Origin: Escherichia phage fDHCT2
Strand: one strand, 5' to 3'
Sequence record: OR427838.1
DNA: 64,000 nt
Shown: in pieces, positions 14,043-27,225 of the stretch
Layout: every line of letters starts with the position of its first letter
How positions within the stretch are numbered: the first letter of the stretch is position 1
Translations under genes and position numbers: made by a program
Notes under the pieces: generated by a model
Told to the model about the DNA's origin: nothing
The model's database searches: none
What the model saw: only the letters and a program-made list of their open reading frames with translations

Positions 14043-14342
14043 TTAGAAAGAACCAGAACCTCTAATTGTGTTCTGGCGACCTTTATTTTCCAATTCGGAA
14101 TGGTCGATTTCGTAGGCTTGTGCTACACCAAAAGCCTTTTTAACTTTAGCTAAAGAGCCTTTAGATGTAACAATATTAAAAGTATTACCTTTGGTAAAAT
14201 CAACCAAATCCACTTGTACACCTTGTTTACCGAGGCTTGCTACAATAGCATCAACATATTCTTGGTCTAAGGTGCCTTGGACGCCTATTTGGAATGCTTT
14301 AGGAGCTTTGGCTTCTGTAATAAATTCTTGATAAGTTTTCAT
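14043..14342 (-). CDS. internal-protein-like head protein with capsid targeting sequence ([10 protein letters not shown])
   Basis: N-terminal [11 protein letters not shown] matches the T4 IP capsid-targeting sequence; own promoter 14367-14396. Confidence 0.65.
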   Translation of the reverse strand: MKTYQEFITEAKAPKAFQIGVQGTLDQEYVDAIVASLGKQGVQVDLVDFTKGNTFNIVTSKGSLAKVKKAFGVAQAYEIDHSELENKGRQNTIRGSGSF

Positions 14343-14366
14343 ATTATTCCTTAAGTTGATAGAAGT

Positions 14367-14396
14367 ATTCTACCACGGATTTAATTAAGCGTAAAT
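14367..14396 (-). promoter_or_regulatory. early promoter (-35 ATTTAC, -10 TAGAAT) of IP-like gene
   Basis: Minus-strand hexamers with 18-nt spacer. Confidence 0.5.
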
Positions 14397-14801
14397 AGCC
14401 TTGCCATAGTGTTTGTACCAGGTAGGACGTTGTGCAATTTTTTCATCCAAACGGGCTTGTGAAATAGCGATAGAAGCTTCGTGAGGAACATAATCACCAC
14501 GGAATTCCTGAGGAATATCACTAATGTCCTGGACTGTAGTATCCTTGATATTAAAGCCACGTTTTAAACATTCGGTTATAAGCTCGATTTGACGCTTACG
14601 TAAAAATTCAAGCTTATCGTAAAAGAATGTAACATGGCCTGTACCAAGGATAAAAGTAGGGCTGATTTTAAAATCACGAACGCGTTTACCGTTAGCAACA
14701 TGCTTACGAACTGCACCGAAAACACGTGGTAATTCACGATATTCAGCCATTAAGTGTTGGTCAGCCAATTCAGATACTAAGGTAAGGTTGATACGAGTCA
14801 T
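14385..14801 (-). CDS. denV: endonuclease V (pyrimidine dimer DNA glycosylase)
   Basis: 138-aa protein near-identical to recalled T4 endo V ([28 protein letters not shown]...). Confidence 0.95.
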
Positions 14802-14861
14802 TTTAGTGTTCTCCGTGTTTGTATGAGAACACTATATCACAGCTATCGTAAAAGTAAACTA

Positions 14862-15164
14862 TTATTTACCTTTAATTGCTTTAGCTGCTTCGGTAGCCGC
14901 TTGCTGAAGGTCATCCATAGTCATGCCGAACTTAGAAGCAAAGTTATCAATTTTCTTTTCGACAGAATTCAAAGGCTTGGCCTGTTTACCTTCATTAGCG
15001 CCAGGAAGAGCGAGAATACGCTCTTTGTCAATATAAAGGCTTACAAGTTTCTTACGGTCTTTATCGGACAAATCATGAAATGAATGAGCCTTTTTATTTA
15101 TAGCGGCTTCTAATTTACCCGCAGTTACGCGGGCTTCAGTGATAAATTCTTGATAGGTTTTCAT
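14862..15164 (-). CDS. ipII: internal protein II-like ([13 protein letters not shown])
   Basis: CTS at N-terminus, 100 aa, position between denV and ipIII. Confidence 0.7.
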   Translation of the reverse strand: MKTYQEFITEARVTAGKLEAAINKKAHSFHDLSDKDRKKLVSLYIDKERILALPGANEGKQAKPLNSVEKKIDNFASKFGMTMDDLQQAATEAAKAIKGK

Positions 15165-15205
15165 ATGTTTCCTTTAAATGTAAATAGGCCTAAGTATCGG
15201 CCTTA

Positions 15206-15802
15206 TTAATTACCACGGGCTGCATTAGCAACGGCGTAAGCGTACTGAATATTAGCGTCTTTAAACGTACCTTTAGAGGTATCTATTTCTGCCTTAAAGC
15301 CGCCTTTAGCCATAACATCGGCAAATTCTTTACGGAAAGCCATTGCATCAAGACCTTTCCATGATGATTTGTGCTTGGCAAATTCAAGACCAGCGAAGTT
15401 GACAGCCTTAGCCAATTTATTATCAATAGTCCATTTACCTGCTTTAGGTACAACTACCGGGCCTTTTTGTTTAGAGAACAGTTTTAAATTCCAGCGACGA
15501 AGGTCGCCGTCAGCTTTAACAAAAGCTGCGTCCAAGTTACTAGCAACAACATCCTGAATATGGCCAAATTTAAGCCCATCAGCTTCAATATTTAGGTCGT
15601 TACGCCAGCGAAGTCCTTCCCAGGCGAAAGCTTTAAAGTCAGAAGCTTTTGTAGCTAAATACCGTTCAATAGGAGCTGTTTTAGCGTCAAAACCATTTCC
15701 TGGGTTGTCAACGCCGTTTCCTCGGTAGGTCCACTCATCTTTATTAATGCCTTGGACCTTTCCTACAGAAGCTTCGGCGATAAATTCTTTATACGTTTTC
15801 AT
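15206..15802 (-). CDS. ipIII: internal protein III-like (CTS MKTYKEFIAE)
   Basis: CTS at N-terminus, 198 aa, adjacent to e. Confidence 0.7.
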   Translation of the reverse strand: MKTYKEFIAEASVGKVQGINKDEWTYRGNGVDNPGNGFDAKTAPIERYLATKASDFKAFAWEGLRWRNDLNIEADGLKFGHIQDVVASNLDAAFVKADGDLRRWNLKLFSKQKGPVVVPKAGKWTIDNKLAKAVNFAGLEFAKHKSSWKGLDAMAFRKEFADVMAKGGFKAEIDTSKGTFKDANIQYAYAVANAARGN

Positions 15803-15855
15803 ACGGGTTCCTTAAAGGTAAATATTTTAATTAGTCTGTTCAAGTAACTGTATAT

Positions 15856-15884
15856 ATACTATCACAATTCTAGGAGATGTAAAC
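15856..15884 (-). promoter_or_regulatory. early promoter of ipIII
   Basis: GTTTAC-17-TAGTAT. Confidence 0.55.
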
Positions 15885-15888
15885 TGCT

Positions 15889-16377
15889 TTATCTATAAGC
15901 AGCCCAAGTACCTGTTTTAAATGTTGAAATCACGCGCTTAGCACGATTAGGAGTTTGTTTATACCAACGGGATTGAGCCAGGTTAACTGCGGCATCATCC
16001 CAACGTTTCTGTTGGAGCATACGCAGAGAGTTGGTAAATCCTGCTACACCAGCTTCGCCCATTTGGAAGACCATGTTAATTAAAGCACAACGACGAACTT
16101 CGTCCAGCACATCATAAACAGGTTTCAATTTAGGATTACGCAGAATAGCTCTACGAGCATTATCAACCGACCGGTTAAAGAGTTGTTCTGCTTCAGCCAT
16201 AGTAATACGACCATTACAAACTCGACCCATAAGCTTATCAAGTTCAGCGCGGGCAACATCTTTAGATGGGTTCTTGGTAACTAACTGGCCAATACCAATA
16301 GTCCAATAACCTTCAGTGTCTTTATAAAGATTTAAATCAAGACCTTCGTCTTGACGTAACATATCAAAAATATCCAT
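15889..16377 (-). CDS. e: endolysin, T4 lysozyme family
   Basis: [13 protein letters not shown]...[15 protein letters not shown], about 75% identity to recalled T4 lysozyme. Confidence 0.95.
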
Positions 16378-25575: not shown

Positions 25576-25580
25576 TTAAT

Positions 25581-25847
25581 TTAAATTACAAATCCAGCAG
25601 GGGCATTATCATCTTTAGCCATGTGCTGAATTGTATGATAAGTCATTTCTTCAGGAGCAACCAGATAAGCCGCAACGTTAACTAGTGGAATTATTTTTGG
25701 TTTAGCGAACGTGCTATCAGAAATTGCCATAAAGGGCTCGCCGTCGGTCTCAACTTCGCCAAATTGGCACTCGTAAGAAATAGAACAACGTTTGGTGGTG
25801 GTTGTCTTGGTTTTAGGGTCATAAAAAGCTAATTTTAATACTAACAT
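25581..25847 (-). CDS. hypothetical protein (88 aa) immediately upstream of the tRNAs
   Basis: ORF ending 5 nt before the tRNA 5' end. Confidence 0.45.
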   Translation of the reverse strand: MLVLKLAFYDPKTKTTTTKRCSISYECQFGEVETDGEPFMAISDSTFAKPKIIPLVNVAAYLVAPEEMTYHTIQHMAKDDNAPAGFVI

Positions 25848-26025
25848 AATACCTCAAATAAAATTAAGTAAAGTAAGTTTGATTAATAGACCTTGTCTAT
25901 TATGAAAGGCTCTTTGAGGGAAGAACCTTTGGTAATAGAGGGTTACTTAATAATGTTAGAGTAATAATATCACATTACTCTTAAAGCATATTACTATTTT
26001 TAGGAATAGTCTGGTCAAATTTGAT

Positions 26026-26316
26026 TCATTGTGGCCACATATTAATGTAATCAAGTTTAATAGAAGCAATCTTCAAAGGATTTTTAAAGATGTCGTATTC
26101 GACCAATCCATTTTCAGTTGCAGTATAAAAAGTAAAATTAACAGAATTATAACGATGACTGTTAACTTTGAGTTTAACGTCGCTTGAACTACGGCCAATA
26201 TTAACCTGTTGAACATCAAGCACGGCATCTTTGCCAAAGTTGCGAATCAGTAGCTCTGCTGCAACCTGGTCCGAATTATAGCCATTCTCTGGATTAGTAA
26301 CTTTAACGTATAGCAT
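26026..26316 (-). CDS. hypothetical protein (96 aa)
   Basis: ORF. Confidence 0.45.
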   Translation of the reverse strand: MLYVKVTNPENGYNSDQVAAELLIRNFGKDAVLDVQQVNIGRSSSDVKLKVNSHRYNSVNFTFYTATENGLVEYDIFKNPLKIASIKLDYINMWPQ

Positions 26317-26697
26317 TTAACCCTCGTCTACAATAGTGTGGGTATTGGCATTAACAATCTGCCACCAGTCAAAACGATTGGAACCATAACAAGGCTTATT
26401 CTCGTTTTCTTTAATGATATCGCGCAGTTCATCTTCAGTCGCTGCCTTTGCGATTAAGTCAGCATAACCGCCACGAGGATAATAGTTATCACCGGCAAAG
26501 AGCAAAAAGTTTGTTTTGATATTCTTGAATTCTTCAAGAGTAATAACTGTTCCGCCAGGTTGAACAATATCTATATAACTATATCCTAATTTCTGTGCTT
26601 CATTTACCGCTTCGAGCAGGGTGTCGTGTGCCCACCCAATTTGGCAATCTGGTTTTTCAGATGGATTTGCTTGATAATCCGCATACACTTTATACAT
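26317..26697 (-). CDS. hypothetical protein (126 aa)
   Basis: Trimmed to ATG 26697 (MYKVYADYQ). Confidence 0.5.
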   Translation of the reverse strand: MYKVYADYQANPSEKPDCQIGWAHDTLLEAVNEAQKLGYSYIDIVQPGGTVITLEEFKNIKTNFLLFAGDNYYPRGGYADLIAKAATEDELRDIIKENENKPCYGSNRFDWWQIVNANTHTIVDEG

Positions 26698-26698
26698 T

Positions 26699-26884
26699 TT
26701 ACTCACCTTTAGAGATTTTATCCATAACGAAAGAAATTGAACCAATTAAGAATGCCACTACTAAAGAAATTATATTCTCGGAAGTTGAAAGCATATCGAG
26801 CATGAATCCTGCAAACATACTAAAGCCGAAAGCAGTAACAGCGGCCAGTGCAGTAACATTTCTAATTAATTCACAACGTTTCAT
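26699..26884 (-). CDS. small membrane protein
   Basis: Trimmed to ATG 26884 (MKRCEL) with GGAG SD; early promoter 26921-26950. Confidence 0.5.
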   Translation of the reverse strand: MKRCELIRNVTALAAVTAFGFSMFAGFMLDMLSTSENIISLVVAFLIGSISFVMDKISKGE

Positions 26885-26920
26885 TTTATTCTCCAATCAC
26901 TCATTTGTTTTGATAGGGCT

Positions 26921-26950
26921 ATAGTATCACCACTAAAGCCCGTTGTAAAC
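26921..26950 (-). promoter_or_regulatory. early promoter
   Basis: GTTTAC-18-TACTAT plus conserved downstream block. Confidence 0.55.
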
Positions 26951-26952
26951 AC

Positions 26953-27225
26953 TTATTTTAGATAAATTGCGTATTTTTTATAACCAGCCGTCTCGTGGCG
27001 CAGCCCTTTTTCATTAGCAAAACGTTCAATATTGTTAATTTGATTCTGGTCTAGTTCTGAAGTATCAAATACAAAAAAGTTTCGCTTATTGCCTAAAGTT
27101 ACGTGATTAGTCAAATCGATGTTATAGAGATGATTTATATTATCAATCATGGTCTTAACAGATTTGTTAATTTTTACTTCTTCATTAAGAATAGATTCAG
27201 CGATAAATTCTTGATAGGTTTTCAT
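26953..27225 (-). CDS. ipI: internal protein I-like ([13 protein letters not shown])
   Basis: CTS at N-terminus; ATG 27225 overlaps 57B stop as ATGA; same position as T4 ipI. Confidence 0.65.

Follow-up and report, generated by a model that had tools for sequence, protein, structure and literature searches.

Five genes with the T4-type capsid targeting leader in a Dhakavirus genome segment, one encoding a probable unrecognized internal protein

Injected internal proteins act before phage gene expression, and in T4 each neutralizes one type IV enzyme that limits host range; knowing the tagged cargoes of a therapeutic or model phage helps to predict the wild strains that it can infect. The stretch of Escherichia phage fDHCT2 analyzed here (record OR427838.1; 64 kb, referred to below as the window) contains five genes that open with the same 10-residue leader, MKTYxEF(I/L)xE, and raises the question of which cargoes stand behind this leader and whether any of them is new. 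For the most part the answer is routine annotation along textbook lines, with four of the genes encoding already-named internal proteins (Ips). The only new element is the family of the fifth, a 154-amino-acid (aa) protein that bears the leader, is uniformly annotated as hypothetical, and is probably an unrecognized internal protein.

The list of open reading frames (ORFs) and a six-frame motif scan of the window yield five ORFs, and no more, that open with the leader. All five lie on the minus strand (coordinates include the stop codon), and they encode an Ip7-family internal protein (14043..14342; 99 aa; predicted mature form of 89 aa with an isoelectric point, pI, of 9.0), an IpII ortholog (14862..15164; 100 aa; predicted mature form of 90 aa, pI 9.7), an IpIII ortholog (15206..15802; 198 aa; predicted mature form of 188 aa, pI 9.6), the 154-aa protein, a member of PHROG 2280 (24504..24968; predicted mature form of 144 aa, pI 9.5), and the internal protein Ip9 (26953..27225; 90 aa; predicted mature form of 80 aa, pI 8.0). 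An earlier, sequence-only reading of the window had placed the genes at exactly these coordinates, without giving their strand. The motif begins at the first ATG of each ORF, 3 to 12 codons past the preceding in-frame stop, and a degenerate DNA pattern of the leader matches the window five times, against 0.00 matches expected from 100 dinucleotide-preserving shuffles. Permitting two mismatches in the DNA pattern still returns five copies and none further in the window, and relaxed protein patterns recover the same five ORFs only.

The leaders are not identical (e.g., MKTYKEFIAE at 15802 and MKTYNEFLTE at 24968), and their codons vary mainly at synonymous third positions (ACT, ACC, or ACG for Thr3; TAT or TAC for Tyr4; ATT or ATC for Ile8), indicating that the peptide has been kept by selection, and not the DNA by recent copying. 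Residues Y4, F7, I/L8, and E10 are found in all five. In T4 IPIII, the first 10 residues are enough to carry foreign proteins into heads, gp21 removes this leader, and residues 4 and 7 serve in targeting and residues 8 and 10 in processing (PMC9026906); the equation of the window's leader with the T4 capsid targeting sequence (CTS), already made in the sequence-only reading, agrees with these data, including residues 4, 7, 8, and 10. An (L/I)-x-E motif, the expected gp21 cleavage site, closes every leader, and the predicted mature forms of all five proteins are basic (pI 8.0 to 9.7).

Beyond residue 10, sequence comparisons of the 99-, 154-, and 90-aa proteins with each other and with T4 IPI, IPII, and IPIII gave no significant match, and Pfam and NCBIfam searches with the five proteins gave no match over threshold. 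Simple duplication of IPII or IPIII, which had been named as one outcome that would count against a set of distinct cargoes, is ruled out as a source of the extra genes by this comparison of bodies. The 99- and 154-aa proteins had been singled out as the extra copies, with the 90-aa protein by implication standing for IPI. Their unrelated bodies bear out one part of this view; the 90-aa protein is instead Ip9, the 99-aa protein belongs to the named Ip7 family, and the 154-aa protein alone goes unrecognized as an internal protein in annotations.

PHROG 2280, to which the 154-aa protein belongs, is labeled "unknown function" and includes RB32ORF133c and QL01 gp136. Phages QL01, WG01, and E33 encode a 154-aa protein identical to that of the window. 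A tblastn search finds the family in 511 phage records, from Dhakavirus, Mosigvirus, Tequatrovirus, Tegunavirus, and Klebsiella phages; the annotations among the matches listed, as well as all names in three protein clusters, are "hypothetical" or "uncharacterized." Homologs of 157 aa (RB18 and RB32), 178 aa (a Yersinia Tegunavirus), and 177 aa (a Klebsiella phage) are encoded at the same site, between the tRNA/rnaC region and e.8, and the window gene occupies this third locus, between rnaC and e.8. N termini across the family (MKTYNEFLNESVLTE, MKSYAQFLNEAVLNE, MLKFNEFLAE, MLEYSEFLKE, MKFKEFLIE, and MISFNEFVDGNLITE) all retain the core aromatic-x-E/Q-F-(L/V) together with one or more (L/I)-x-E sites, and they remain leader-like where body identity has fallen to 38 to 47%. 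In the window allele, five residues of the long form are deleted, and the result is the exact 10-residue canonical leader (MKTYNEFLTE/QS, with the slash marking the predicted cleavage point). Retention of the leader across such divergent members is the main argument that it is likely to be functional in this family. An exhaustive HMMER search with the body against 1.8 billion cluster representatives returned nine matches, all from one narrow family, and no distant homolog hinting at function. The AlphaFold model is helical (pLDDT 73, pTM 0.45); Foldseek matches of this model to ferritin/ROP-like helical bundles in the PDB were weak (E ≥ 0.3) and were set aside as uninformative.

The 154-aa gene is bracketed by two GC-rich hairpins of 29 nucleotides (nt) in direct repeat, which are 93% identical, lie 650 nt apart, and carry no strand assignment. 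The upstream copy (25010..25038) directly follows the rnaC homolog, and homology to T4 rnaD/rnaC stops just ahead of it; the downstream copy (24360..24388) is the counterpart of the single copy in Salmonella phage ABTNLS3. Alignment shows that ABTNLS3 has an empty site, with no 154-aa gene and one hairpin at the junction, against two in the window. The noncoding stretch of ~450 nt downstream of tRNA-Arg (24969-25418) contains very well conserved homologs of T4 rnaD and rnaC; these match no Rfam family, and Rfam finds two tRNAs only around the 154-aa gene. The RB32 annotators recorded a 34-bp imperfect direct repeat around the RB32 homolog. The interval from the 154-aa gene to the second hairpin copy holds the remnant of a second cassette gene (24389..24503, minus strand), which keeps the first 5 codons (MKLLK, then a stop) and the last ~15 codons (AMLAFHINPFRFYKN, then the stop) of a 184-aa gene present at the same position in phage JS10 (EpJS10_0132). 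A further hairpin (24482-24501) sits just past the 154-aa stop codon, within the remnant stretch. The repeats, the empty site, and the remnant together mark the 154-aa locus as a cassette site, where genes are gained, lost, and left to decay.

The four remaining genes could be named directly. The 100-aa protein is 91% identical to T4 IpII over 100 aa (PHROG 7857, E = 3.4e-53) and the 198-aa protein is 88% identical to T4 IpIII (PHROG 5341, E = 1.3e-114), with a sigma70-like early promoter match upstream of the latter gene at 15883-15856. These two are orthologs of characterized GmrSD inhibitors; the 99-, 154-, and 90-aa proteins are not. The 99-aa protein, in which AK follows the leader, falls in PHROG 2667 ("internal head protein"; E = 8.5e-43) and is 93 to 94% identical to genes annotated ip7 in phages VR25 and VR26 and 50% identical to Ip7 of T2; its gene is directly downstream of denV, whereas T2 and RB32 carry Ip7 at 57B. 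The 90-aa protein is 100% identical to "Ip9" of IME08 and 78 to 79% identical to Ip9 of RB15 and RB32 (PHROG 7673, E = 2.9e-56), and its gene occupies the classical 57B-proximal ipI slot, where its start codon and the stop codon of 57B overlap as ATGA. Identification of the 90-aa protein with T4 IPI was rejected: BLASTP aligns the leader only (E = 0.14), and the body alone has no match. Sequence searches of the PDB with the 99-, 154-, and 90-aa proteins gave no meaningful match, and for the 90-aa protein none at E ≤ 1. The names Ip7 and Ip9 derive from RB15, K3, and T2; PMC12373910 and the RB32 annotation both cite Repoila et al. 1994 for them. Four of the five tagged genes thus lie in the two recognized Ip loci (the denV/e region and the 57B-tRNA region), with the 154-aa gene elsewhere.

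By its sequence, the window is that of a JS98/JS10-like T-even phage of the genus Dhakavirus. A 14-kb interval is closest to Dhakavirus genomes (93% identity over 84% to ABTNLS3 and 92% over 82% to JS10), and the gene order is that of T4, running vs.8 - denV - ipII - ipIII - e - nudE ... rnaC/rnaD - tRNAs and going on after the tRNAs with trna.2-4 - ipI slot - 57B - 57A - 1. The genome that carries the five leader-bearing genes also encodes a gp21-type protease and a scaffold core. The prohead protease gp21 (57647..58282, plus strand; Pfam Peptidase_S77, E = 6.4e-103) is the enzyme expected to cut the leaders off, and the scaffolding core protein gp22 (58313..59128, plus strand; Pfam T4_CASP, E = 6e-90) is the presumed leader-binding structure. 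The portal gp20 is likewise encoded in this head-assembly block, and the two ORFs between it and gp21 are, by synteny with T4, the putative prohead core proteins gp67 (56971-57219, plus strand), which has an acidic gp67-like tail, and gp68 (57219-57647, plus strand). The major capsid protein gp23 (59150..60709, plus strand; Pfam Gp23, E = 2.6e-122) keeps the T4 maturation-cleavage context ...SFLTE/AEIGG, which provides a check within this phage on the (L/I)-x-E specificity of the protease, and gp24 (61144-62424) keeps the T4 context MAKINDLLKE/ST. With both contexts retained, (L/I)-x-E specificity can be assumed for the protease of this phage.

Because the critical leader residues occur in all five proteins and the protease and scaffold are both present, we infer packaging, cleavage, injection, and anti-defense activity by the T4 pathway, and we consider it probable that the five genes encode T4-type internal proteins injected as anti-defense cargo. 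Each protein would be made with a 10-residue N-terminal CTS that binds the assembling prohead scaffold core (gp22/gp67/gp68). The gp21 protease would then cleave after Glu10 of (I/L)-x-E, and the freed basic protein would stay in the head during DNA packaging, to be ejected with the DNA into the next host, where it would act ahead of any phage gene expression. Ip7, Ip9, and the 154-aa protein would represent alternative cargoes from a polymorphic pool, most likely countering other first-response, DNA-targeting defenses.

By analogy with T4, reading such tagged proteins as injected anti-restriction factors is strongly precedented and is the standard view in the literature. The T4 head contains ~1000 internal protein molecules that are embedded in the DNA and ejected with it, and Rao and Black describe the T-even internal proteins as diverse defense proteins with only the CTS in common (PMC3012670). 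The GmrSD type IV enzymes inhibited by T4 Ip1, Ip2, and Ip3 differ from one Ip to the next, and there is no cross-protection: IPI* blocks the GmrSD of CT596, Ip2 the GmrSD/BrxU of ECOR21, and Ip3 the two-gene GmrSD of ECOR17 (PMC12373910). The targets of Ip2 and Ip3 attack sugar-modified cytosine DNA. Leaderless IPIII expressed in the host cytoplasm still rescues infection (PMC9391042).

The repertoire had been described as expanded, a claim that comparison with relatives does not sustain. Counted with the same leader pattern over the equivalent ~15-kb interval, tagged ORFs number three in T4, two in T2, four in RB32, four in JS10, and six in ABTNLS3, the nearest relative; the pattern misses the annotated Ip5 of T2, and RB32 also has an annotated Ip5 beyond its four. 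RB32, JS10, and ABTNLS3 hold four to six tagged ORFs, and by this count five is not unusual for the phage group. At least 10 Ip types are already cited in the literature (PMC12373910), and PMC3012670, PMC9026906, and PMC12373910, where they touch on Ip polymorphism among T-even phages, credit it to Repoila et al. 1994. One of the four tagged ORFs of JS10 is unannotated. It encodes a leader-bearing protein of 97 aa in the ipI slot of the RefSeq record, between 57B and trna.4 (locus L001:1596), and its leader and position mark it as a missed internal-protein gene. At the position of IpII in the window, JS10 encodes a 132-aa tagged protein. The ip genes act as exchangeable cassettes, with different tagged genes filling the same slots in relatives.

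The body of Ip9 (residues ~17 to 90) has leaderless homologs in unrelated, non-T4-like phages. These comprise a standalone 72-aa protein in Kagunavirus JSSK01 (JSSK01_64; L007:2507-2725; PHROG 7673 positions 20 to 90, E = 6.8e-27), an unannotated ORF in Seuratvirus ECP2304 (L009:~1990-2216), and a 755-aa Kuttervirus protein (L008:491-2758; PHROG 3867, function unknown), in which the homology is confined to the C-terminal ~85 aa. A fold match of Ip9 in BFVD to a 535-aa viral protein fits the case of the Kuttervirus C-terminal domain. This distribution suggests that the leader was grafted onto a pre-existing small phage protein, and more broadly that the tag was added to existing counter-defense genes. 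If so, cargoes derived from leaderless proteins would be general anti-defense modules, and screens could reveal their targets.

A scan of IMG/VR for the leader DNA pattern gave at least 141 matches at at least 120 loci, where by our own estimate chance would produce only a few in the whole collection. The matches listed include at least 122 distinct ORFs in at least 68 body families, which indicates that the ~10 named Ips fall far short of the natural cargo pool. Half of the loci listed are recognizably T4-like within their short flanks. In Pfam searches on the ORFs neighboring the remaining loci, most had no match and a few had a DnaB-like helicase, a family-B DNA polymerase, or an SMC-type ATPase, which T4-like phages also encode and which do not discriminate. 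One of the matches listed is an 836-aa DNA methylase starting MKTYIEFLKE. A literature search found no published catalogue of this leader-bearing cargo pool, and Petrov 2010 contains no discussion of the CTS. We regard as evenly balanced the wider proposal that the 154-aa family is a genuine internal protein of ~500 T-even-like phages at a third, hairpin-flanked Ip locus, that the leader is a portable tag on a cargo pool larger than the ~10 named Ips, and that some cargoes, such as the Ip9 body, were recruited from leaderless proteins of unrelated phages.

Several points weigh against assigning all five proteins to injected anti-defense cargo. Literature searches gave no virion proteomics for the 154-aa family or the other tagged families, and structure predictions for the tagged proteins yielded no functional clue. 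Minus-strand copies of the canonical late promoter TATAAATA number 4 in 64 kb, against ~4 expected from base composition by our own estimate, so that late expression is not supported from sequence and these matches were not used as evidence; the best match upstream of the 154-aa gene, at a distance of 35 nt, is 7/8. Scans of the window for sigma70-like promoters and terminators were likewise near shuffle expectation. When ip4 to ip10 from T4-like phages were tried on five further GmrSD variants, inhibition was absent or not reproducible (PMC12373910, section 10 and Supplementary Fig. 9), and a GmrSD target for Ip7 and Ip9 is thus hypothetical.

The chemistry of the DNA adds a further difficulty. 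A 2026 study infers arabinosylated 5-hydroxycytosine in Dhakaviruses, and not glucosylated hydroxymethylcytosine (glucosyl-hmC) (PMC13326640), which raises the possibility that the host enzymes of relevance here are not those studied with T4. In the JS10 record (21868-26603), neither a-gt nor b-gt is annotated; in the phage analyzed here, the modification genes lie outside the window. The same part of the JS10 record, from uvsX to gene 43, contains a "phosphoheptose isomerase," a "thymidylate kinase"-like gene, and large hypothetical genes, which fit the arabinosyl-5-hydroxycytosine pathway described for RB69. By analogy with these relatives, the DNA of the window phage probably differs chemically from that of T4. 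Orthologs of Ip2 and Ip3 in a phage with predicted arabinosylated DNA raise the question of what these inhibitors guard against there, and their near-identical retention suggests either that their targets also attack arabinosylated DNA or that they have further roles.

Three other explanations bear on the proteins without characterized orthologs. Ip7, Ip9, and the 154-aa protein might be packaged as generic basic counter-ions, fillers, or ejection aids with no specific host target, as would suit their basic mature forms and nondescript predicted folds, the ~1000 internal protein molecules within T4 head DNA (PMC3012670), and the lack of reproducible anti-GmrSD activity of ip4-10 (PMC12373910). 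We find this quite improbable. All three T4 Ips were long deemed fillers, and each proved to have one specific target (PMC12373910); presence/absence polymorphism and nonhomologous bodies in the same slot are expected of an arms race, not of a charge role; and the Ip9 body also occurs in siphoviruses as a leaderless early-region protein, where it could not be used as a head filler. The 154-aa protein, for its part, might be a cytoplasmic accessory protein outside the virion, resembling leader-bearing proteins at its N terminus by descent or through recombination with an ip gene. No database names it an internal protein, its gene lies outside the two recognized Ip loci, departures from the canonical leader are larger elsewhere in the family (MKSYAQFLNEAVLNE, MLEYSEFLKE, MKFKEFLIE), its residue 11 is Gln where Ala or Ser is usual, and its upstream late-promoter match is imperfect. 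Such a history is nonetheless unlikely, since the leader core and the (L/I)-x-E site persist to 38% body identity, which is hard to explain without selection, and the window allele combines an exact 10-residue canonical leader with a predicted mature form that is basic, like those of other Ips, and a junction (FLTE/Q) nearly equal to the gp23 context of the window (FLTE/A).

The remaining explanation retains injection and anti-defense activity, but has Ip7, Ip9, and the 154-aa protein act on targets outside the GmrSD family; these could be other immediate-early defenses, for example, enzymes recognizing arabinosylated 5-hydroxycytosine DNA, other type IV systems, or non-nuclease systems. The Ip9-body homologs in Kagunavirus, Seuratvirus, and Kuttervirus phages are in keeping with such targets, as these are to our knowledge not glucosyl-hmC phages. 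So are the negative results for ip4-10 with further GmrSD variants (PMC12373910) and the probable arabinosyl-5-hydroxycytosine chemistry of Dhakavirus DNA (PMC13326640). Against it, all three characterized Ips hit GmrSD enzymes, and the authors of that work argue that both Ip loci target the GmrSD family (PMC12373910). This family is highly diverse, and the tests covered only a few of its variants; we view targets outside GmrSD as a tentative and rather doubtful possibility. The T4-type pathway, with anti-defense cargo that includes the 154-aa protein, is the explanation that we prefer. Being widespread, tagged, and missed by annotation pipelines, the 154-aa family is a ready candidate for anti-defense screens.

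The window has further features, some of which touch on the leader, its cleavage site, or the exchange of small genes. Within ORF 20113-20463, a 19-nt stretch (20393-20411) matches the ipIII leader DNA at 95% identity; it codes for an internal ...LLKTDKEFYM... and not for an ORF start. JS10 EpJS10_0122 contains the same segment, which a former leader, or recombination at one, could have left behind as a fossil. Three minus-strand ORFs (17083-17676, 21953-22339, and 22296-22832) have a common C-terminal tail, ...N(E/T/R)FI(K/A)EC(R/K)..., after a basic stretch, and at least two of them contain hydrophobic stretches that by eye resemble membrane segments; a tail of this type also ends ORFs of the region in T4 and JS10. 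The FI(K/A)E in this tail resembles a gp21-type (I)-x-E site, which may be coincidence. A tandem array of five small paralogous ORFs (65 to 96 aa) occupies 20694-21956 on the minus strand, each ending in W-x(1-2)-SS-x(0-2)-C with a C-terminal cysteine (...GAWVSSSAMC, ...GGWVSSSSEC, ...TSWVSSSYEC, ...GFWFNSSMSC, and ...KIWYPSSC). An element of ~45 nt (...TGATACTATAGACCTATCAAAACAAC..., minus strand) recurs at 18591-18635, 24270-24314, and 26885-26929, upstream of small early-type genes; the copies are probably shared early-promoter/5' untranslated region modules, through which cassettes could be shuffled.

Several known systems can be set beside this arrangement. PeSL elements, reportedly described by Arbiol et al. 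in 2010 as mobile cassettes flanked by hairpins and promoters in the hyperplastic regions of T4-type phages, resemble the 650-bp insert of the window, which lies between stem-loop direct repeats and has a single-copy empty site in a relative; PeSL repeats carry an early promoter; the repeat in the window is the rnaC-terminal hairpin. Ip9 stands in the slot of T4 IPI, right after 57B, and follows the same logic of a leader joined to a small body, but its leader has 10 residues against 19 in T4 IPI and the bodies share no similarity. The named T-even types are represented by the 99-aa protein, in the Ip7 family (PHROG 2667), and by the 90-aa protein, which is Ip9 (78 to 100% identity), although the Ip7 of the window is only ~50% identical to the T2 type and is placed beside denV, not 57B. 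The IpII and IpIII orthologs correspond to those of T4 over their full length, with the same leader, strand, and order beside denV and e, in a Dhakavirus whose DNA is inferred to contain arabinosyl-5-hydroxycytosine instead of the glucosyl-hmC of T4 (PMC13326640). The Dar proteins of phage P1 and other capsid-packaged anti-restriction proteins are unrelated in sequence, use another loading mechanism, and lack a short cleavable T4-type tag at the N terminus, but as described in PMC12810830 they too are loaded into the head and coinjected with the DNA.

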